A stretch of DNA of 50,235 nt from a virus (Duplodnaviria; Caudoviricetes): positions 1 through 50,235 of the IMG/VR virus record IMGVR_UViG_3300036854_000038; one strand, given 5' to 3'. A program made the translations under genes and the position numbers. This document shows, piece after piece, positions 23,174 to 43,684 of the stretch. The notes beneath the pieces are model-generated. The model was not told the origin of the DNA, searched no databases, and saw only the letters and a program-made list of their open reading frames with translations. How positions within the stretch are numbered: the stretch's first letter is position 1; each line of letters starts with the position of its first letter.

Positions 23174-23228
23174 TGTCGAGTCATGACTCTACGCTCTCCC
23201 TGGGATGCTGTCAAGGGATGACTTGACA
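23174..23228 (-). promoter_or_regulatory. Promoter TTGACA-17-TAGAGT with two 20-bp operators
   Basis: -35 at 23214-23209, -10 at 23191-23186; operators 23174-23193 and 23209-23228. Confidence 0.85.
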
Positions 23229-23468: not shown

Positions 23469-23523
23469 TGTCGAGGCATGACTCTACGCTCCCTCATGGA
23501 TGCTGTCAAGCCATCACTCTACG
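23469..23523 (-). promoter_or_regulatory. Promoter TTGACA-17-TAGAGT with two operators
   Basis: -35 at 23509-23504, -10 at 23486-23481; operators 23469-23488 and 23504-23523. Confidence 0.85.
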
Positions 23524-23531
23524 CACTTCTC

Positions 23532-23586
23532 TGTAGAGCCATCCCTTGACGCTCTCCTCTCCCACCTGTAGAGTCATGGCATGACA
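23532..23586 (+). promoter_or_regulatory. Promoter TTGACG-17-TAGAGT with two operators (leaderless)
   Basis: -35 at 23546, -10 at 23569, ATG 6 nt after the -10; operators 23532-23551 and 23567-23586. Confidence 0.85.
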
Positions 23587-23745
23587 GAGAGCCACGCGAC
23601 AGCGAAGCGCCAATGCCCACGGTGCGGACGGGACATCACCGTCGATGATGGCCGGCTCGAGCCAGGGCGGAAAGGCCTGCTGCTTCGCCATCGTGACCCA
23701 GCTCGAGGCTGGAAGCGGTGCCCGTACAGGGGGCGTGGCAAGTGA
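23581..23745 (+). CDS. Small zinc-finger-like protein
   Basis: MTESHATAKRQCPRCGR...LRH...RCPY; stop overlaps the next GTG. Confidence 0.65.
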   Translation: MTESHATAKRQCPRCGRDITVDDGRLEPGRKGLLLRHRDPARGWKRCPYRGRGK

Positions 23746-24782
23746 CGGCGGCGGTCCAGACCCGTTGTGCTGGGTGTGGCCATTTCGTGCGCCGCCGCGC
23801 GGACATCCTTGACCCCGAGTTCAATGAGCTTGCGCGGAGTGAGGAGGCCTACTCGCGTGAGTGGGAGGAGCATGATTGCCCGGCCCAGTACAGCGAGAAT
23901 GCGGCGCCGCGGCGTGGGGAGTATGAGGCGTACCTGGAGAGCCTTGACGTTGACGGGCTTGTGGAGGAGCTGGGGGAGGCTGGCGCGGCCGCGTACCTGG
24001 GTGTGACAGCTGAGACGGTCGACGCTCCCGAGACTGCGGCGGCACCGGTTGCTGCTGCTGCGGCTGTTGAGGCTGCGGTGCCCGAGGTTGAGGCGGTCAG
24101 CCTCAGCGAGCTCGTGCGGCGCATGGATGCGGCCGCGAAGCCTCCGACAGTCCGGCCGCGGCGGCGGGTGACTCCGGTCAGCGCCGAGGACTGGGATGCG
24201 ATCATGGGCGCCCGGGTGGTCGCTGAGGCGGAGCGGATCACCCGGGCGATACCGGCAGCGTGGTTGGAGCCCGTCACGCCTGAGCAGCTGCACCTACTGG
24301 GAGGCGACGATGGTGAGGAGCCGAGCTTACGGGCGCGCGCGCGTCGCGACAGCGCTGGAATGCGGCCAGCGGGTGGCCGACGCGATGGCCAGAAAGGACA
24401 GCGGGACGCCGGAGCAACGGGCCGCCCAAATCGTGGCCCGCAGCCAGGATCTCCGACACCACGACGGGCCGATCGTGCAGCTCGACTTGGACGGCGGAGC
24501 GACACCACTCCCGTCCGCCCCTTGCCCTGGCCCGACACTCCCCAAGGGGAGCGGCCGACAGCTCAGCCTCCCCCTGGCCGTGCCGGTCGTCTACCAGTCG
24601 CCAGCGTGGAACGGGACCGTCGAACAGCCCCCACTCGACCTCGCCGCGGACGGCGAGGGTTGCGGCTGAGTCGCCTGCTGCGCTGGTTGCAGCAGGACGA
24701 CCCACGCTTGACGCATCGGCTTGAGCGGACAGCGCGGGTGGTCGAGTGGGTTGAGCGGCTGTTCGTCGCCGACCCACACTAG
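23742..24782 (+). CDS. Hypothetical protein (acidic N-terminal half; C-terminal half doubtful)
   Basis: RCAGCGHFV start; second half overlaps another ORF (24310-24669). Confidence 0.5.
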   Translation: MTAAVQTRCAGCGHFVRRRADILDPEFNELARSEEAYSREWEEHDCPAQYSENAAPRRGEYEAYLESLDVDGLVEELGEAGAAAYLGVTAETVDAPETAAAPVAAAAAVEAAVPEVEAVSLSELVRRMDAAAKPPTVRPRRRVTPVSAEDWDAIMGARVVAEAERITRAIPAAWLEPVTPEQLHLLGGDDGEEPSLRARARRDSAGMRPAGGRRDGQKGQRDAGATGRPNRGPQPGSPTPRRADRAARLGRRSDTTPVRPLPWPDTPQGERPTAQPPPGRAGRLPVASVERDRRTAPTRPRRGRRGLRLSRLLRWLQQDDPRLTHRLERTARVVEWVERLFVADPH

Positions 24783-24787
24783 CAATC

Positions 24788-24842
24788 TGTAGAGGGATGG
24801 CTTGACACACCCTGCCCATTCATGTAGAGTCATGACACGACA
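24788..24842 (+). promoter_or_regulatory. Promoter TTGACA-17-TAGAGT with two operators
   Basis: -35 at 24802, -10 at 24825; operators 24788-24807 and 24823-24842. Confidence 0.85.
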
Positions 24843-24865
24843 GAGAGACCAGTAGGGGAGGGGCG

Positions 24866-25030
24866 ATGGAGCAAGTCAGGAAGGCCCGGCGGTACACGGC
24901 CACGGTGGAGAGCGCCAGCGGAATCCTCCACACATTCGAGGTTCTTGCGCTCGACCTGAACGGTGCTCGTCATGCGGTGGCGCGCAAGTACCCGGGGACC
25001 TACTTGCGGGCACTGCGCCCAGTCAACTAA
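24866..25030 (+). CDS. Small hypothetical protein (54 aa)
   Basis: GGAGG RBS; MEQVRKARRYTATVESASGILHTFEVLA... Confidence 0.65.
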   Translation: MEQVRKARRYTATVESASGILHTFEVLALDLNGARHAVARKYPGTYLRALRPVN

Positions 25031-25049
25031 CCGAGAGGAGGCGCGAGCA

Positions 25050-25307
25050 ATGGGAATGACGCAGATGGTAAGCGCCGAGCAGATGAGCTCGGCGGCGAGT
25101 TACCTGATCCGGAACTGGGGCGAATACGGCTACAGGATCGGCGTGGAGGCTGCCGGGTTCACGCGCGCCGCGTTCCTATGCCGCGCATCGGACGGCTCAG
25201 AGTTCCGCTTCCTGGTCGACCGGTACGGCAACACGGTTGACCTTCCCGACGCGCCGAGCCTTGACCGGGCGCTCGAGCTGCTGCCCGCCGAGCAGGTGAC
25301 CTCATGA
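25050..25307 (+). CDS. Hypothetical protein
   Basis: AGGAGG RBS + ATG. Confidence 0.7.
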   Translation: MGMTQMVSAEQMSSAASYLIRNWGEYGYRIGVEAAGFTRAAFLCRASDGSEFRFLVDRYGNTVDLPDAPSLDRALELLPAEQVTS

Positions 25308-25498
25308 GCGCGGCCACGGTCGCCGTGTCGCTGGCCTGTGAGACGGGCCGGTGTGACCGGTGCCGCGGGACGGTCGTCAGCCTCACCCGCCCGGTGGGCG
25401 CGCAATGCGAGCACGACTGCCACAGCACCGACGACCAGGCCATCGAGGCGCAATTGGAGCGCGAGCACTTCGGCGAAATCGGCTACTGGGACGAGTGA
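25304..25498 (+). CDS. Small Cys/His-rich protein
   Basis: ATGA-coupled; CETGRCDRC...CEHDCH. Confidence 0.65.
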   Translation: MSAATVAVSLACETGRCDRCRGTVVSLTRPVGAQCEHDCHSTDDQAIEAQLEREHFGEIGYWDE

Positions 25499-25512
25499 GG
25501 AAGGGGAGAGCA

Positions 25513-25875
25513 ATGACCTACCGCAGAAGCTACGGGCGCCGGTCGAGTGCGCCGCGGCAGGGCCGCTGGATGGCACTTCGCTACGCGGGCACCTGCACCG
25601 CTGGCGAGACACTCGCCGCCGGGACCCGGGCGTTCTACGACCCGTCCGACCGGTCAGTCACGTGCACTGACCTGGAGCACGCCAAGGCGGCCGGGCTGAC
25701 AACGGAGAAGTGGCAAGGCTCGCCGACCAGCGGCAGCTATCAGACCGTGCTGTCCGACGTGCGCCGCGACACTGACGGCGTGGTCGTGGCGAACACGCGG
25801 TACGGCAGGCGGCGCGGCTACGAGTGGACCGGCAGCCGGTGCATCGACGCGCCGTGCTGCGGGTGCTGCGACTGA
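25513..25875 (+). CDS. Hypothetical protein with C-terminal RCIDAPCCGCC motif
   Basis: GGGGAG RBS; Cys cluster at the C-terminus. Confidence 0.7.
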   Translation: MTYRRSYGRRSSAPRQGRWMALRYAGTCTAGETLAAGTRAFYDPSDRSVTCTDLEHAKAAGLTTEKWQGSPTSGSYQTVLSDVRRDTDGVVVANTRYGRRRGYEWTGSRCIDAPCCGCCD

Positions 25876-25889
25876 CCAGGAGAAACACC

Positions 25890-26054
25890 GTGACTGATGA
25901 GGAGCTCGCCGAGCACATGCAACAGGTCCACGAGTGGTGGCCCATGGCGCCCGAGGTGGCCCGCAAGTTGCACGACCGCGACCACCGCCAGGCCATCAAT
26001 GGCACATACCGAGGACACCGCCACGACGACCAGGAGGAGGAGCAAGGATGCTGA
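25890..26054 (+). CDS. Small hypothetical protein
   Basis: AGGAG RBS + GTG. Confidence 0.55.
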   Translation: MTDEELAEHMQQVHEWWPMAPEVARKLHDRDHRQAINGTYRGHRHDDQEEEQGC

Positions 26055-26371
26055 CCAACACAACCGCCACGCTGGAGGAGCTCCAGGAGCTCGTGACCGC
26101 GGGCACGCACATCACCCTGTCGCGCCGGATGCCGGAGAGCACCCGGCCCGGGACCTTCTCGGGCGTGCTCAAGCAGGCCAGCGGGCCGTTCCCGCCCTAC
26201 GGCTTCGCCGTGTTGTGGCACGGCGACCAGGGCGAGCAGTCCTACCTCGCTCTGCCTCCCGACTGGGAATGGAGCATCGAGCGCACCGAGCACAGGCACA
26301 CCGACCTGCAAGAGCACGCGCACGACTACATCCAAGGCTCACGGGTGCTGATTCACCGCCACGCGAGCTGA
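26048..26371 (+). CDS. Hypothetical protein
   Basis: GGAGGAG RBS + ATG; stop lies 2 nt before hammerhead 1. Confidence 0.7.
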   Translation: MLTNTTATLEELQELVTAGTHITLSRRMPESTRPGTFSGVLKQASGPFPPYGFAVLWHGDQGEQSYLALPPDWEWSIERTEHRHTDLQEHAHDYIQGSRVLIHRHAS

Positions 26372-26373
26372 CA

Positions 26374-26427
26374 GGCCGAAACCGGCCGCCCGGCCGGTCC
26401 TAGCGTCAAGCGCTAGCTGATGAGGCC
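26374..26427 (+). ncRNA. Hammerhead ribozyme 1 (type II)
   Basis: GGCC-GAAA-CCGGCCG(CC)CGGCCGG-UC^-CUAGCG(UCAAG)CGCUAG-CUGAUGA-GGCC; all core nucleotides and three stems; predicted cut after C26399. Confidence 0.92.
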
Positions 26428-26458
26428 AGGCAGACCTCAAGCGAGGGAGGGCAGGGGA

Positions 26459-27529
26459 ATGGTCGAGATTATCCACACCAGGGCCGACGGGACCATGGCG
26501 CACGGCACCACCCGCGGCGATGGCAGCGCGCCGATCCTCAAGCGTGCCGGGTTCCGGTGGGCGCCGTCGCTCAAGACGTGGATTGTGCAGCAGTCCCGCG
26601 ACCGGGCCGTCAAAAGCTGGATTGTCGACGCGGCCGCCGAGGGGCTCCGCGCGGCCGGGTTCGAGGTCACCGTCTCGATCGACGACACCCCGCGCGCATT
26701 CGCGGAGGCCGAGGCCGAGCGTGCCGAGCGGATCAGCGAGCGCGCCGACCGGCTCGAGGGGCGCGCCGGGCGGGCCACCAGCGAGGCTGAGGCACGCTAC
26801 GCGGCCGCGCGCCGCGAGGCGGACCTGATCCCACCGGGCCAGCCGATCCTCGTCGGGCATCACTCCGAGCGTGGGCACCGCGCGGCGCTCAAGCGGATCG
26901 ACAACAACATGCGCCGCTCGATCGAGGCTGACCGCGCGGCGACCCACTACGAACGGGCCGCGAAGGTGGCCGGCCAGTACACCGCCCGCCGCGAGAGCCT
27001 CCCAACGACCCTGCGGCGGATCGCCAAACTCGAGGCGGAGGAGCGCAAAACCCGCCGGGACATGCAGCCGTGCCCGACGTCAGCACGGAAGGCGAAGGCC
27101 GGCAACGAGGGCCGCACGTTCACCTGCCCGCGCTGCTACAACGAGCAGACCATCGGGGCGGATCTGCTGGTGCCCGACCACGGCCGGCGGATCTCGCAGG
27201 CGACCGCGGATCAGCGCCTGGCGGAGCTCGCCGACGAGCTCGCCTACTGGCGCAAGGTGGTCGCCGACCAGGAGGAGGACGGCGCGAAGGTGTGGGGGCC
27301 GGCGGACTTCCGCCCGGGTGACCGGGTCCGGTACTGGGGCGGCTGGCGTGAGGTTCTCAAGGTCAACGCCAAGAGCCTCACCGTGCCATCCGGCTACTCC
27401 TGGGATGAGCGCCTCCCGTATGACGAGGTGCGCGGCCGGCGGGCGGCCGGCGACCCGGGCGGCCAGGTCGAGCACGTCGACCAGGAGGACGACGGGCCGG
27501 CCGACGAGTGCGACGGCGCCGACCGGTAG
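26459..27529 (+). CDS. DUF3560-like protein
   Basis: IPPGQPILVGHHSERGHR motif; N-terminal LKRAGFRWAPS..W; C-terminal SH3-like segment (DFRPGDRV...VLKVNAKSLTV). Confidence 0.85.
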   Translation: MVEIIHTRADGTMAHGTTRGDGSAPILKRAGFRWAPSLKTWIVQQSRDRAVKSWIVDAAAEGLRAAGFEVTVSIDDTPRAFAEAEAERAERISERADRLEGRAGRATSEAEARYAAARREADLIPPGQPILVGHHSERGHRAALKRIDNNMRRSIEADRAATHYERAAKVAGQYTARRESLPTTLRRIAKLEAEERKTRRDMQPCPTSARKAKAGNEGRTFTCPRCYNEQTIGADLLVPDHGRRISQATADQRLAELADELAYWRKVVADQEEDGAKVWGPADFRPGDRVRYWGGWREVLKVNAKSLTVPSGYSWDERLPYDEVRGRRAAGDPGGQVEHVDQEDDGPADECDGADR

Positions 27530-27586
27530 GCCGAAACGGCGCCCGGCCGGGTGCCGTCCGCGGGTAGGGCCCGCGCTGAGGAGGCC
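27529..27586 (+). ncRNA. Hammerhead ribozyme 2 (type II)
   Basis: GGCC-GAAA-CGGCGCCCG(GC)CGGGUGCCG-UC^-CGCGGG(UAGGG)CCCGCG-CUGAGGA-GGCC; predicted cut after C27558; loop AGGG can pair with CCCU at 27593-27596. Confidence 0.92.
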
Positions 27587-27612
27587 AGAGAGCCCTCACC
27601 AGAGGAGGAGCC

Positions 27613-27777
27613 GTGTACCTGTTCGCCGTGCTGATCGACGGGACCAGCGAGGCCGTCATCGTCGGGGCCGCCAGCAAGTCGCAGGCCATCGAGGCGGCCG
27701 GCCGGCTGCGACCCGGCGTCAACTTCGGCAAGACGTTTGTGCTGCTGACCAGCGACAACCACAGCCACGACTACTGA
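27613..27777 (+). CDS. Small hypothetical protein (54 aa)
   Basis: GGAGGAG RBS + GTG; MYLFAVLIDGTSEAVIVGAASKSQAIEAA... Confidence 0.65.
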   Translation: MYLFAVLIDGTSEAVIVGAASKSQAIEAAGRLRPGVNFGKTFVLLTSDNHSHDY

Positions 27778-27789
27778 GAAGGAGGCATC

Positions 27790-28047
27790 ATGCCCGAGAC
27801 CTACCCCGATGGCATCCCAATGGAGGCAATGACCGAACGTGACCCCGGCCTCGGCTCCAAACTCGCGGTCAACAGTGCAATCGCTTGCATGCGCGCGGTC
27901 GCCTACCACCGCGGCGCCGCCGAGACCTACGGGGCCGACACCACCAGCGGCGACAGCGGCATCCCGTCGCTGACACTGGCCGCGCAGTACACCGCCGAGG
28001 CGCAGGCGTGGGCGACCATCGCGCTCGCCATTCAGGCGGGACGCTAG
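27790..28047 (+). CDS. Hypothetical protein
   Basis: AAGGAGG RBS + ATG. Confidence 0.7.
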   Translation: MPETYPDGIPMEAMTERDPGLGSKLAVNSAIACMRAVAYHRGAAETYGADTTSGDSGIPSLTLAAQYTAEAQAWATIALAIQAGR

Positions 28048-28142
28048 CCGTGGCCATCGCCGGCCTTGCCCTCCAGGCCCTGCTGATCGTGGCGGTGGGG
28101 GCGCTGATCGTCCACAACGCCCGCATACCCCGCTGAGCCTCC

Positions 28143-28207
28143 GACCGGTAGGCGTCAAGGCTGTACTCGACGCCTACCGGTCAAGCATGTAAGGTCATGG
28201 CATGACA
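28143..28207 (+). promoter_or_regulatory. Hairpin plus promoter TCGACG-17-TAAGGT with two operators (leaderless)
   Basis: 14-bp inverted repeat 28143-28182; operators 28153-28172 and 28188-28207; ATG 6 nt after the -10. Confidence 0.75.
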
Positions 28208-28459
28208 ACCGTGGAGGAGGTGTGCCCGGTGGAGGTCATCGGACAGCCGGAGATCGCCAAGAAGTACGGTAAGACCCTGCAAACGGTGTGGCAGTGGCGC
28301 CGCCGCTACCCGGACTTCCCCGCCCCACTTCCCGGGCGGGTCGCCGGCGCGCCAGCGTTCAACGCGGCAGCCGTCGACCGGTGGTACACGGCCAAGTGGC
28401 CCGACCGACCCGCAGCGGCCGCCCACCGGGACGGCGATCAGGACGGAAGTAGGCCATGA
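28202..28459 (+). CDS. AlpA/Xis-like HTH regulator
   Basis: IGQPEIAKKYGKTLQTVWQWRRRYPDFPAP...F....VDRW. Confidence 0.8.
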   Translation: MTTVEEVCPVEVIGQPEIAKKYGKTLQTVWQWRRRYPDFPAPLPGRVAGAPAFNAAAVDRWYTAKWPDRPAAAAHRDGDQDGSRP

Positions 28460-28758
28460 GCGAGGGGCCCATCCGGTGCAGCGACGAATTGACCCGGCGC
28501 ATCCTAGAACACCATCGGCGGATCGGCGTAGCCCTTGGTGCGGCCGTCCAGCAGATGCAGCAGGACGGCCGCCGATTCCATGGCCGCATGGTCGAGGCGA
28601 CCCTGGCCGCAGAGCGCGCCCGGCTCCGAGCACTCCGCGATTACCGCATCGCCCACACACCACGGCTGCTGCGCCCGTTCGCGCGGGTGGTCGCGCACCT
28701 TGCCTACCAGATCACGCTGGCGTGGGAGGACCTACCGCCCGAGCGCAAACGTCGATAA
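28456..28758 (+). CDS. Hypothetical protein
   Basis: ATGA-coupled to the HTH gene. Confidence 0.5.
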   Translation: MSEGPIRCSDELTRRILEHHRRIGVALGAAVQQMQQDGRRFHGRMVEATLAAERARLRALRDYRIAHTPRLLRPFARVVAHLAYQITLAWEDLPPERKRR

Positions 28759-29115
28759 GCGAGCCCGGCTCAGCGCCGCTCCGGTCGGGTCGGGTTTGGC
28801 CGCGGTTTGAGCGCGGCGACCGCCGCGGCGGCAGGCACACCACGGAGGAACAGGGTGCAGACAGCGCACCGGTCGGCTGGTAGGTGATCGCCGGGCTGGA
28901 CAATGCCGGTGTCGTGCTCCAACCAGAGAATCCGGCGCCGCGGCTGGCCGCTCACGCCGGCCGCTGCTTGCGCGCGTCGTACCAGCGCCAGCCGGGAATG
29001 CCGTACGAGCGGCACGCGCCACACAGCGCCCAGCCGCACATCCCACTGGCGCAGTGCCGGCCGAGCTGACGCTGCCCACAGGAGGGACACTCGACCTCGG
29101 CGCGCGCGTCCCGGG

Positions 29116-39604: not shown

Positions 39605-40960
39605 TTGGAATCGTCCACGACCGCCGCAGTGGGCACGCGCCTGCTCGAACACTTCTCCGACCAGCTCCACCGTATCCCCCTAGGCTTCGGCCCCCGCCAC
39701 CTGGTCGCGCTGCTGATCCTGCTGGCCGTGGGGTACGTGGCTAGGCATGCACCGGACCCCCACGGCCAGCTGGCCGGTGCCCTGCCCGACTCGGGCAGCC
39801 TCCCAGACCCCGAGCTGTACATCGCCGGGCTGACCGGCGGCGGCCTGTGGGAGCGCTACAAGCTGACCATCTCCATGGACGGCCGTCACGAGCCGTCCAC
39901 CGTCGCCCAGTGGGGCGAGGTGTGGGACGACTGGCTCGTCTACCTGCACGCGGCCGGGTGCCGGCGCCGGCCGGGCCGCTGCGACCGTGGGGAGGGCTGC
40001 AAGGGCATCCCCTGGCAGCGCGCCCGGGAGCGGCACTTGAAGGCGTTCCTGGACCTGCCGTGCCGCAGCGGCCCCCGCAAGGGCATGGCCAAGACGGTCG
40101 CCACCAGGGCGGCCTACCTCAAGGCGATCAAGCCGGTGTACCAGTTCGCCGTCCGCAAGCGCATCCTGAGCCGCGACCCGTTCGCCGACGTCCGCCCACC
40201 CAAGGTCGGCGACGGGCTGGCTATCGCGTTCTCCCGCGACCAGCTCGCCAAGATCCTGACCGCCGCGGCCGGCCACGCCGACCGGCGGATCTACATCATG
40301 TGCTGGCTGGGCTACCACGGCCTGCGGTGCATGGAGATCGCCGGGTTGCGCCGCGAGCATGTCCGCCTGGACGACGAGCCGGTGCTGCTGGTGCACGGCA
40401 AGGGCAGCAACCGCCGGGAGGTCCCGGTGATGCGCCTGTTCGTACCGGTGCTGGCCGAGTGGACCCGGGACATGGGGACCTTCGACCCGCTGATCGTCGC
40501 CCACGACAACCAGTGCCGGCCGACCGCGCAGCCGCTCAGCCCCTCCCGGATCTCGGGGATGCTGAGCGACTTCATCCGCCACGACGCGGGCGTCGGCGGC
40601 AGCGCCCACCGGCTGCGGCACACCGCGGCGACGTTCATGCTCGACGAGGGCGACGGGGAGAACCTGCATCATGTCAGCCGGTTCCTCGGGCATGCCAGGC
40701 TCGACACGACGATGATCTACGTGCGCGCGCACCAGTGGAACGTCCGCAAGTGGGTCGACCGGATGCCGGACCCGGCTGACCCGACCCGCCGGCAGCCCCA
40801 GCCGCAGCGCCTCGGTGAGCTGCTCGGCGAGGCACTGCGGCAGACGCTCACCCCGGAGATGAGCCGGCGGCTCCGGGACCTCCCCGAGGACCTGGCCGCA
40901 ACCTACCGGCCGCTGCTGGAGCTTGGCCACCTGCTCGCAGCCGATCAGGCCGGCGGTTGA
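39605..40960 (+). CDS. int: Tyrosine integrase/recombinase
   Basis: Catalytic set GLRCMEI (R), HGKG (K), HRLRH (HxxR), LGH...TTMIY (H, Y); start uncertain. Confidence 0.9.
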   Translation: MESSTTAAVGTRLLEHFSDQLHRIPLGFGPRHLVALLILLAVGYVARHAPDPHGQLAGALPDSGSLPDPELYIAGLTGGGLWERYKLTISMDGRHEPSTVAQWGEVWDDWLVYLHAAGCRRRPGRCDRGEGCKGIPWQRARERHLKAFLDLPCRSGPRKGMAKTVATRAAYLKAIKPVYQFAVRKRILSRDPFADVRPPKVGDGLAIAFSRDQLAKILTAAAGHADRRIYIMCWLGYHGLRCMEIAGLRREHVRLDDEPVLLVHGKGSNRREVPVMRLFVPVLAEWTRDMGTFDPLIVAHDNQCRPTAQPLSPSRISGMLSDFIRHDAGVGGSAHRLRHTAATFMLDEGDGENLHHVSRFLGHARLDTTMIYVRAHQWNVRKWVDRMPDPADPTRRQPQPQRLGELLGEALRQTLTPEMSRRLRDLPEDLAATYRPLLELGHLLAADQAGG

Positions 40961-42199: not shown

Positions 42200-42528
42200 T
42201 CAGCGGAGCACTGACGTGTCATCAATTTCCGGGTCAAACCCGAGGCGGGCCACGCAGTCGGCCTCCCATGATCCCGGCCGGCGGGCGAGCAGGCGGGTCA
42301 TCCCGCCGGCCTTGGCGCTGGCCTGGCGGATGCCGTCCGACAGCCAGCCGGCAATCTCGATGCCGTCGGCGTGCGCCCAGCCGATCAGCGTGGCCAGCGC
42401 GTCGGTGTACTCCGTGGCGTACTCCGTACTCCACGGCGGGGCTCTGGGTCGAGGTCGCTGCCGGGTCGGATAATCTGCTGGTCGTCAGCAGTTCTGCCAG
42501 TGGCTGAGTCGATTGGGTTGTCGGTCAT
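42200..42528 (-). pseudogene. Apparently frameshifted gene
   Basis: The ATG frame stops after about 47 codons; the -1 frame reads EYATEYTDALATLIGW...LLARRPGSWEADCV and has no start before this segment. Confidence 0.4.
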
Positions 42529-43229
42529 TGGCTTTCCTCCCGGAGGCGGCGGGACAGGGTGGTGCGGGCCATGCCGACCGCGCCGGCGACCTCGTCAAGG
42601 CTCAGCCCGCCCGCGGTCAGCAGCTCCCTTGCGCGCGTGACCTGACCTGCGTCGTTGTGCCGTGGACGGCCTCCTGTGCGGCCTCGCGCGCGCGCTGCTT
42701 CCAGGCCAGCGCGGGTGCGTTCGCGGAGCAGGTCCCGCTCGAACTCGGCCAGCGCCGCCATGATGTGGAACAGCAGCCTGCCGGCCGGCGTGCTGGTGTC
42801 CAGCGCCTCGGAGAGGCTGTGGAAGGCGACGCCGCGGCGCTCCAGCTCGCCGACGACCTCCAGGAGGTGCTTGAGGCTGCGGCCGAGCCGGTCCAGCTTC
42901 CACACGACCAGCGTGTCCCCCGGGCGCAGCTGCTCCAGGAGCGCGTCGAGCTCCGGGCGGTCCTGGCGGGCGCCGCTGGCGTGGTCGGTGAACACCCGCC
43001 GGCAGCCGGCCCGCTGGAGCGCGTCAAGTTGGAGCTCGGGATGCTGGTCGACGGTGGACACGCGGGCGTAGCCGAGCTGGTAGCCGGACCACTCTGGCGG
43101 CGGGCCGAAACCCGTCGTGTCGGCCTGGTCGGCGGCCAGGGTTTTGGTCGACGGTTTTGGTCCCGGACGATCGCCGTTGGCGCCGGCCGGGCCCGGGTCG
43201 ACCACAAGGGAGCGTTTCTGCCCGGTCAC
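42525..43229 (-). CDS. Small serine recombinase (resolvase/invertase family)
   Basis: GYARVSTVDQ, RPELD.LL..LRPGDTLVVWKLDRLGRS, AEFER....ERT.AGL.AARARGR.GGRP, C-terminal HTH. Confidence 0.95.
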   Translation of the reverse strand: MTGQKRSLVVDPGPAGANGDRPGPKPSTKTLAADQADTTGFGPPPEWSGYQLGYARVSTVDQHPELQLDALQRAGCRRVFTDHASGARQDRPELDALLEQLRPGDTLVVWKLDRLGRSLKHLLEVVGELERRGVAFHSLSEALDTSTPAGRLLFHIMAALAEFERDLLRERTRAGLEAARARGRTGGRPRHNDAGQVTRARELLTAGGLSLDEVAGAVGMARTTLSRRLREESQ

Positions 43230-43684
43230 GTCTTGCTCGCTCGGTCGTAGTCGTCGAGCCACCGCTGCGCGTATTCGCTGAGCCGGTAGTACTCCTCCGG
43301 GTGCAGCTTCGGATCGCCGCCGTGCTTGCGCTTCATCCAGCCGAGCAGGTCGCCGATGATCTCGAAGGCTTCCTGATCGGCCTTGCGCAGCCGTTCGACC
43401 TCGCCGATGAGGTGGTCGGTATCGTCGGGGGCATGGGCGATGAACTCAGCGTCTTCGCGTTTCCAGACGCCAGCTTCACCATGTTCGGTCGCCACGATAC
43501 TGTCGTCGTCTTCCCGGCCGAGGATGTCCCAGTGCCACTGGGCCGACTCCTCATGTGATGGCCGTGAGCGGCGCCATGCTTCGCCGATCCGATCGTGAAC
43601 CCGCCACGGCGGCCGGGTGATGGCTGCTCTGCGAGCCTTGATCTGGTCGAGGTTGAGCGGATCGGGGACGGCAGGGTCAGTCAT
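43226..43684 (-). CDS. Ead/Ea22-like phage protein
   Basis: IKAR.AA.T..PW...DAEFIAHAP.D...L..EVERLR. Confidence 0.7.
   Translation of the reverse strand: MTDPAVPDPLNLDQIKARRAAITRPPWRVHDRIGEAWRRSRPSHEESAQWHWDILGREDDDSIVATEHGEAGVWKREDAEFIAHAPDDTDHLIGEVERLRKADQEAFEIIGDLLGWMKRKHGGDPKLHPEEYYRLSEYAQRWLDDYDRASKT

Follow-up and report, generated by a model that had tools for sequence, protein, structure and literature searches.

Two type II hammerhead motifs with identical stem II sequences flank a DUF3560 gene in a phage genome

What becomes of a phage message that has a self-cleaving ribozyme motif on either side of it? The question is raised by the IMG/VR record IMGVR_UViG_3300036854_000038, a complete virus record of 50,235 bases that was analysed at its full length and is called the window here, in which two type II hammerhead motifs, HH1 and HH2, lie directly before and after a gene for a DUF3560 protein. 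The layout, with hammerheads between phage genes, has been known since 2011, and the idea that the RNA between them forms a circle is not new; the locus itself is a clean new example of that layout. The data suggest that the most likely fate of the message is a linear one, and that the early operon transcript probably cleaves itself into linear pieces while it is being made. The part of wider interest is a regularity of stem II, the helix that is the same in the two motifs. In a large set of related hammerheads from other viral contigs this helix is phage-specific and yet shared within arrays of hammerheads, while stems I and III are individual, and this is the observation that is new here.

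Two canonical type II hammerheads at the borders of the DUF3560 gene

The elements of the locus are the following.

26374–26427, + strand: HH1, type II hammerhead, cut after C17 at 26399
26459–27529, + strand: DUF3560 gene, 356 aa, with ATG at 26459, a GGGAGG-type ribosome-binding site (RBS) at about 26445–26450 and the TAG stop at 27527–27529
27529–27586, + strand: HH2, type II hammerhead, cut after C17 at 27558
26400–27558, + strand: predicted excised RNA, 1159 nt, deduced from the two cut sites and holding the entire DUF3560 frame with its RBS

The hammerhead core is numbered as C3 U4 G5 A6 N7 G8 A9, G12 A13 A14, the A15.1–U16.1 pair, and H17 (any residue but G) at the cut. This core is complete in both motifs, with CUGAUGA in HH1 or CUGAGGA in HH2, GAA, the A–U pair and C17, and no core position deviates. 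The order of elements, GGCC-GAAA-hairpin-GUC-hairpin-CUGANGA-GGCC, is also the same in both, and corresponds to the type II topology, in which stem II is open. HH1 consists of GGCC (26374–26377), GAA (26378–26380), the stem III hairpin (26381–26398; 7 bp, the first pair A–U), the stem I hairpin (26400–26416), CUGAUGA (26417–26423) and GGCC (26424–26427). The corresponding parts of HH2 are GGCC (27529–27532), GAA (27533–27535), stem III (27536–27557), stem I (27559–27575), CUGAGGA (27576–27582) and GGCC (27583–27586). Hence, the first-pass annotation, which had described two hammerheads with an identical GGCC/GGCC stem II and self-contained hairpins as stems I and III, can be read directly from the sequence: stem II is an open 4-bp GGCC/GGCC helix and stems I and III take the form of closed hairpins in both motifs. 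The excised piece that it had delimited, 26400–27558, is likewise exact by the cut positions 26399 and 27558.

The minimum-energy folds contained a stem II of 4 bp, a stem III of 7 or 9 bp and a stem I of 7 bp, with no mispairs adjacent to the core, and each ribozyme alone folded as a canonical three-way junction (−27.4 kcal/mol for HH1 and −34.8 kcal/mol for HH2). The bare core pattern matched twice in the window, versus a mean of 0.32 matches per shuffle, and two or more matches occurred in 4 of 100 shuffles; when the three helices were required, there was no match in 200 dinucleotide shuffles. A covariance model, R1, was trained on 55 hammerheads of other phages with HH1 and HH2 left out. 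With this model HH1 obtained 65.2 bits (E 1e-18) and HH2 obtained 50.8 bits (E 6e-14), while the next-best site in the window reached 14.4 bits. In its training alignment 13 of the 16 model pairs vary on both sides, and 99.8% of the cells are paired, partly by construction because the training sequences were picked for pairing. At the level of sequence, HH1 and HH2 were thus confirmed as canonical type II hammerheads.

The Rfam model RF02276 (Hammerhead_II) aligned end to end with both motifs, with 29.5 bits for HH1 and 22.9 bits for HH2. The motifs share with this model the core, the permuted topology, the open stem II and the looped stems I and III, while they differ from it in that its short stem II and its pseudoknot tail do not fit, and part of the GGCC is treated as an insertion. 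A scan of the whole window against Rfam at E ≤ 1 gave only a chance-level match to a small nucleolar RNA and no ribozyme of another class; the hammerheads themselves were missed under the stricter filters that apply to 50 kb. The pseudoknot between loop I and the 3′ tail could be formed in HH2 by AGGG:CCCU pairing, while HH1 has no such match.

Both ribozymes fill intergenic gaps. The upstream stop codon ends 2 nt before HH1, and the DUF3560 stop codon overlaps HH2 by 1 nt, the final G of TAG being the first G of HH2. Start codons follow 31 nt after HH1 and 26 nt after HH2, and each is preceded by a purine-rich RBS. The open reading frame (ORF) finder had placed the DUF3560 start at an in-frame ATG at 26420–26422, which falls in HH1's CUGAUGA core; the true start is more probably the ATG at 26459, which has the RBS in front of it. 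The excised RNA is predicted from the sequence to carry a 5′-OH before the stem I hairpin and a 2′,3′-cyclic phosphate after the stem III hairpin.

Related hammerheads in other viral contigs

Three scans of viral contigs were made, each of which gave at least 130–144 stretches, and the samples described here are the first 130 or so matches of each. The scan for the motif with a GGCC stem found at least 130 stretches, and there were 117 distinct structured hammerheads among the matches listed (L004–L133), to which the following counts refer. An ORF stop was located within 150 nt upstream in 104 of them (median 2 nt), and 92 had a start codon no more than 120 nt downstream (median 28.5 nt), which means that the placement seen at HH1 and HH2 is conserved throughout the family. 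The G at core position 7 of HH2 was found in five of the 117. In 35 the last base of the stop codon was also the first base of stem II (TAG-GCC type); at such sites the 5′ strand of stem II would lie under a ribosome that is terminating, so that cleavage could be coupled to translation.

The stem I hairpin was 17 nt long in 101 of the 117 hammerheads. A pseudoknot between loop I and the 3′ tail was reported for most type II examples (Perreault 2011; PMC3088659). It was not enriched among the 117, in which the best match was no longer than with the tails of other hammerheads. These sequences form a large type II subfamily, which may already be contained in the supplementary alignments of the 2011 study. 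Its stem II has exactly 4 bp, its stem I hairpin is 17 nt long with G-U-N-A-N-G-C at the centre, and it gives no sign of a pseudoknot. Together with HH1 and HH2, a member in a phage locus related to the window (L145) scored below the RF02276 gathering score, and a member in another related locus (L138) gave no match at E ≤ 5.

The genes located between tandem hammerheads in the listed contigs are small; 21 of 22 had no Pfam match and none of the 22 was a DUF3560 gene. Where a locus had complete flanks and held one or more structured hammerheads, a single hammerhead was present in 32 of 47, 27 of 50 and 29 of 55 loci in the three samples. Since lone hammerheads are common, cutting by itself must be useful.

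Predicted processing into linear messages

To explain these data, we propose that HH1 and HH2 would act as cis-cleaving punctuation between the genes of a rightward early operon. Each ribozyme would fold locally during transcription, because it needs only 54–58 nt, and would cut after GUC. The polycistronic RNA would be divided in this way into three parts, with a message for DUF3560 alone between an upstream and a downstream piece. As the upstream stop codon stands before the cut, ribosomes would terminate normally. At each cut, the 5′ piece would be left with the stem III hairpin and a cyclic phosphate at its end. The 3′ piece would begin with a 5′-OH, the stem I hairpin and then about 30 nt with the RBS, and every piece would stay translatable. 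The likely effect is that the stability and translation of neighbouring genes would be uncoupled, as by an insulator. The complete core with three helices, the R1 scores well above those of the rest of the window, the stop and start placement kept across the family, the frequency of lone hammerheads, and the promoter-like sites upstream with no terminator (see below) all argue for linear processing, and it is from the motifs and their conserved placement that we infer cleavage in vivo and its effects on stability and translation. Engineered systems provide a parallel: in RiboJ, ribozyme cutting gives defined hairpin-capped ends, and in Tornado, flanking ribozymes whose ends are held together let RtcB circularise the RNA. 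As synthetic constructs, these demonstrate that both outcomes are feasible and not which of them occurs here.

Similar processing was proposed when hammerhead clusters were described in prophages. Clusters of this kind were reported to cleave in vitro, and in one case in E. coli, and the proposal was that long phage transcripts are processed into single-gene messages, with circular or spliced products as an alternative (Perreault 2011; PMC3088659). A 2019 review repeats the single-gene proposal. In later reviews the role of bacterial and phage hammerheads is still given as an open question, one that for phages has stood for fifteen years. In the 2011 clusters, as in the window, hammerheads that include type II lie on one strand between the genes of phage operons, and the flanked genes vary (PMC3088659); the present locus differs in that the flanked gene is DUF3560 and in that its ribozymes belong to the subfamily whose stem II is exactly 4 bp and whose stem I hairpin is 17 nt long.

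A second parallel is Desulfovibrio vulgaris, for which three type II hammerheads were reported, two of them about 300 nt apart, with both cleavage ends detected in vivo (PMC8782182). Its loci 2 and 3 resemble the pair described here, as they are two type II hammerheads a few hundred nt apart near phage-like genes. Unlike here, the context there is chromosomal and prophage-like, in a delta-proteobacterium, and the data come from cyPhyRNA-seq; the available part of that report contains no statement on stem II matching or circles (PMC8782182). In the literature that could be covered, chiefly outside subscription journals and partly in excerpt, nothing on circles from phage hammerheads or on stem II matching was found beyond Perreault 2011 and reviews.

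Several observations weigh against the linear processing. Cleavage of HH1 and HH2 is itself a prediction, and in the available portions of the literature a benefit of cutting for stability or translation is not demonstrated for any phage hammerhead. Linear processing alone also does not predict the excess of shared stem II sequences within arrays, which is described in the next section. Finally, the RF02276 scores of HH1 and HH2 are under the gathering score of 37; we read this as reflecting the limits of that model for this subfamily, given the 65.2 and 50.8 bits obtained with R1.

Stem II varies between phages and is shared within arrays

The GGCC scan was conditioned on the sequence of stem II, while a second scan was keyed on the stem I loop motif instead (L214–L344), and 126 structured hammerheads were found among the matches listed. 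Exactly four complementary stem II bases, of many different sequences, were present in 101 of these 126. The types were GGTC/GACC (29), GGCC (21), GGAC/GTCC (15), GATC (6), AGGC/GCCT (6) and others. That GGCC is a constant of the subfamily was rejected, because only 21 of the 126 carried it in a scan not conditioned on stem II.

Within arrays of this sample the stem II sequences agreed far more often. Among adjacent pairs in the same array 35 of 42 were cross-compatible, versus 33% of random pairs, and an identical stem II was found in 62% of 87 within-array pairs versus 13% of pairs between arrays, large arrays supplying many of these pairs. When one pair was drawn at random from each array, it matched in about 15 of 20 arrays (binomial P about 7e-9). 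Within-array divergence, taken relative to between-array divergence, was 0.67 in stem I, 0.58 in stem III and 0.29 in stem II. Among pairs with strongly diverged stems I and III, 9 of 10 (from 5 arrays) kept the same stem II, versus 12.8%. In two further samples, matching partners were observed for 17 of 25 (GGCC-conditioned arrays) and 34 of 51 (GGAC/GTCC-conditioned; L352–L431) among the matches listed. G+C content was rejected as the cause of the matching, since between-array pairs of similar G+C matched in only 17.6%.

As stem II is matched above chance within arrays, an identical stem II in two neighbours is not merely a constant of the subfamily; and because it is shared within the array, a hybrid ribozyme can be made by any two neighbours around the intervening RNA. 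The sharing may have come about by common descent, or cross-pairing may have been selected for. Outside stem II, too, members of the same array resemble each other more (8.9 versus 5.3 of 13 positions), which fits duplication within the genome. Intermediates may be less well tolerated in an open 4-bp helix than in a hairpin of 7 bp, so that stem II would change more slowly, or the long hairpin stems may have been driven apart to avoid recombination between direct repeats. As for the pair in the window, HH1 and HH2 are alike at 4 of the 13 positions, no more than unrelated hammerheads, and the chance that this pair alone would share GGCC is about 1 in 5. If the matching was selected and not merely inherited, it would suggest RNA joining, in circles or religated pieces, or recombination at the boundaries as a function of phage hammerheads.

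A possible role of the ribozymes at the DNA level

The DUF3560 protein matches Pfam PF12083 (E 2.1e-27, residues 88–200), as well as PHROG 6744 and 17519, which are both families of unknown function. No relative of solved structure was found in a search for one, and the literature mentions DUF3560 only as a common plasmid gene. Among 50,697 phage records there was a single weak protein match (30.8% identity), and no DNA match to 25900–27800. Relatives of the gene were found in one viral-contig locus, three metagenome loci, four distant Bacteroidota loci and, by way of the terminase, in L138. In none of these nine loci (L003, L138, L345–L351) was there a hammerhead beside the DUF3560 gene; all nine were checked by pattern scan, seven also with R1 with filters off, and L003 and L138 by eye. 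This argues against the gene and the ribozymes moving together as one unit.

L138 is closely related to the window, with 75% protein identity in the terminase and 71% DNA identity over 1016 nt of the DUF3560 gene. In L138 the upstream gene leads directly into the RBS and ATG of DUF3560, and the DUF3560 stop overlaps the next start; its one hammerhead is located 2.1 kb upstream of DUF3560, ahead of a homologue of the window gene 23718–24782. The hammerhead of L145 lies between homologues of window genes 25360–25875 and 23718–24782, which are not adjacent in the window. Among 80 terminase-related loci (964 kb) hammerheads were present in L138 and L145 only. Thus, hammerhead positions vary among the three closest phages, and judging by these sequences the ribozymes occur sporadically in this clade and were placed there recently. 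The proposal that the unit is an exchangeable gene cassette is weakened by this variation and by the nine DUF3560 loci with no adjoining ribozyme.

The hammerheads L145:160–211(−) and L138:4291–4343(−) have a nearly identical stem I (with one compensatory change from G–C to A–U) and the same downstream gene, while they differ in stem III, in the upstream gene and in stem II (GGCC versus GGTC/GACC). This ribozyme looks chimeric around the cut site, and the L145 copy is located at a breakpoint of gene order.

An explanation that could hold together with linear processing is that hammerheads mark module boundaries, at which genes are gained, lost or reshuffled by recombination between copies; a shared stem II would keep the chimeric ribozymes made in this way functional. 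The L145 and L138 hammerheads, with their nearly identical stem I, their common downstream gene and their different stem III, stem II and upstream gene, and the gene-order breakpoint at the L145 copy are consistent with such a role. So is the homology between the window and L138, which covers the DUF3560 gene only (from 26444/26528 to 27527) and ends where HH1 and HH2 lie. The same edges are also the gene's own ends, and phage mosaics commonly have homology edges at gene ends with no ribozyme there. HH1 and HH2 have only short identical stretches in common, so recombination between them is not favoured, and the comparison is limited to three related phages. On this evidence we regard a role at the DNA level as unlikely, though worth keeping beside linear processing.

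Possible closure of the excised RNA into a circle

In the second alternative, the DUF3560 message would be circular. The excised RNA begins with stem I, CUGAUGA and GGCC and ends with GGCC, GAAA, stem III and GUC. Its 5′ GGCC (26424–26427) would pair with its 3′ GGCC (27529–27532), the hybrid active site would hold the two ends, and these would be joined either by the ribozyme running in reverse or by an RtcB-type ligase of the host, giving a translatable circle with its own RBS and stop. The earlier claim that the excised ends together make one full hammerhead holds up in folding: the hybrid of the 5′ part of HH2 with the 3′ part of HH1 forms a canonical junction at −31.3 kcal/mol, with an association energy of −6.9 kcal/mol, equal to that of the native ribozymes. 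In the ensemble computed for the 1159-nt RNA, the end-to-end GGCC:GGCC helix ranked first among 23 GGCC partners. Its probability was 0.021, so that the closing helix, at only about 2% of the ensemble, is a minority state. By these models, a circular message is geometrically possible.

The shared stem II gives some indirect support to the circle, because it varies between phages and is nevertheless the same in most within-array pairs; cross-pairing, if it were harmful, would predict the opposite. According to reviews, hammerheads are capable of ligation, and viroids and retrozymes make circles from RNAs that ribozymes have cut. In retrozymes and viroid-like RNAs, an RNA of unit length is cut out by tandem hammerheads and closed to a circle end to end, as is imagined here; these are non-coding or replicating eukaryotic elements, with identical type I or III hammerheads and a host tRNA ligase (PMC7761336). 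Unlike them, the present locus consists of a single phage gene that codes for a protein, flanked by two type II ribozymes that differ in sequence, and its circle is hypothetical.

Other data are less favourable to a circle. In the 2011 study, as far as its text is available, no circular or spliced products could be detected (data not shown there; Perreault 2011; PMC3088659), and in D. vulgaris the hammerhead fragments are reported to retain free cyclic-phosphate and 5′-OH ends in vivo (PMC8782182). Half or more of the listed hammerheads had no partner within 1.5–2 kb, and in the close relative L138 the same gene has a ribozyme on neither side. The match in stem II can also be obtained by within-genome duplication, as the 8.9 versus 5.3 of 13 alike positions indicate, the slower evolution of an open 4-bp helix may explain it, and the GGCC shared by HH1 and HH2 would arise by chance in about one pair in five. 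A phage-encoded RNA ligase was not recognised, as no RNA ligase family was present among the 68 window ORFs scanned against Pfam. Taken together, these data make a circular DUF3560 message quite unlikely. In the general form of the idea, in which every array RNA between two cuts can close as a hybrid and be sealed, with the DUF3560 message naturally circular and translatable, we hold it to be doubtful in the same way; if true, it would mean a natural translatable circular mRNA from a DNA phage.

The remaining alternatives are weaker. That HH1, HH2 or both may be relics that have lost activity, or may resemble hammerheads by chance, could be argued from their scores under the Rfam gathering threshold and from the fact that their activity is predicted. 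The intact cores with no core-adjacent mispairs in either motif, the lack of any structured match in the 200 shuffles, the R1 E values and the covariation of 13 of 16 model pairs in the family (a set chosen for pairing) make this very improbable. Ribozyme-mediated skipping of the gene, in which the fragments ending at 26399 and starting at 27559 would form the reverse hybrid and ligate to a message without DUF3560, is the most improbable of all, for although this outer hybrid also folds as a canonical junction (−30.9 kcal/mol) and spliced products were raised as a possibility in 2011, the outer pieces would after both cuts be two separate molecules held by 4 bp only, no sequence feature holds them together, and the 2011 study, in its available text, detected no spliced product (PMC3088659).

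The phage and its small-gene operon

The linear processing proposed above would take place in a transcript whose surroundings are as follows.

about 23,580–29,100, + strand: small-gene block that contains both hammerheads
23546–23574, + strand: promoter-like TTGACA-17-TAGAGT, second upstream site, consensus match only
24802–24830, + strand: promoter-like TTGACA-17-TAGAGT, the nearest upstream of the ribozymes on the same strand, consensus match only
25934–26371, + strand: upstream ORF, 145 aa, no family match, its TGA stop ending 2 nt before HH1
27613–27777, + strand: downstream ORF, 54 aa, with a GTG start 26 nt past HH2, an AGGAGG-type site before the start, and a G+C fraction at third codon positions of 0.96

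By consensus matching alone there are four promoter-like sites in the window, versus 0.3 expected from shuffles. They are copies of one sequence, at 23186–23214(−), 23481–23509(−), 23546–23574(+) and 24802–24830(+), one of them having TTGACG, and three of the four are grouped where the packaging genes meet the small-gene operon, in a divergent control region. On the + strand, no terminator-like site was found between the upstream promoter-like sites and the ribozymes, nor inside the small-gene block. Relatives of the upstream ORF were sought in viral contigs, and none was found. A search for sequencing runs that contain this stretch gave no RNA run and one DNA run from soil, which may be the source of the contig. 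Over 25800–28200, the contigs of this soil DNA run were compared with the window; in this single run the source contig spans everything, with no joint at the ribozyme boundaries.

The window has a G+C content of 70% and encodes an HK97-type capsid protein, a ClpP-like protease, a portal protein, a large terminase, a tyrosine integrase, a serine resolvase and a helix-turn-helix repressor. Because of these genes it is taken to be a temperate tailed phage, siphovirus-like, and its source is apparently soil. The genes for the tyrosine integrase, at 39605–40957(+), and the serine resolvase-type recombinase, at 42528–43262(−), lie within 3 kb of each other.

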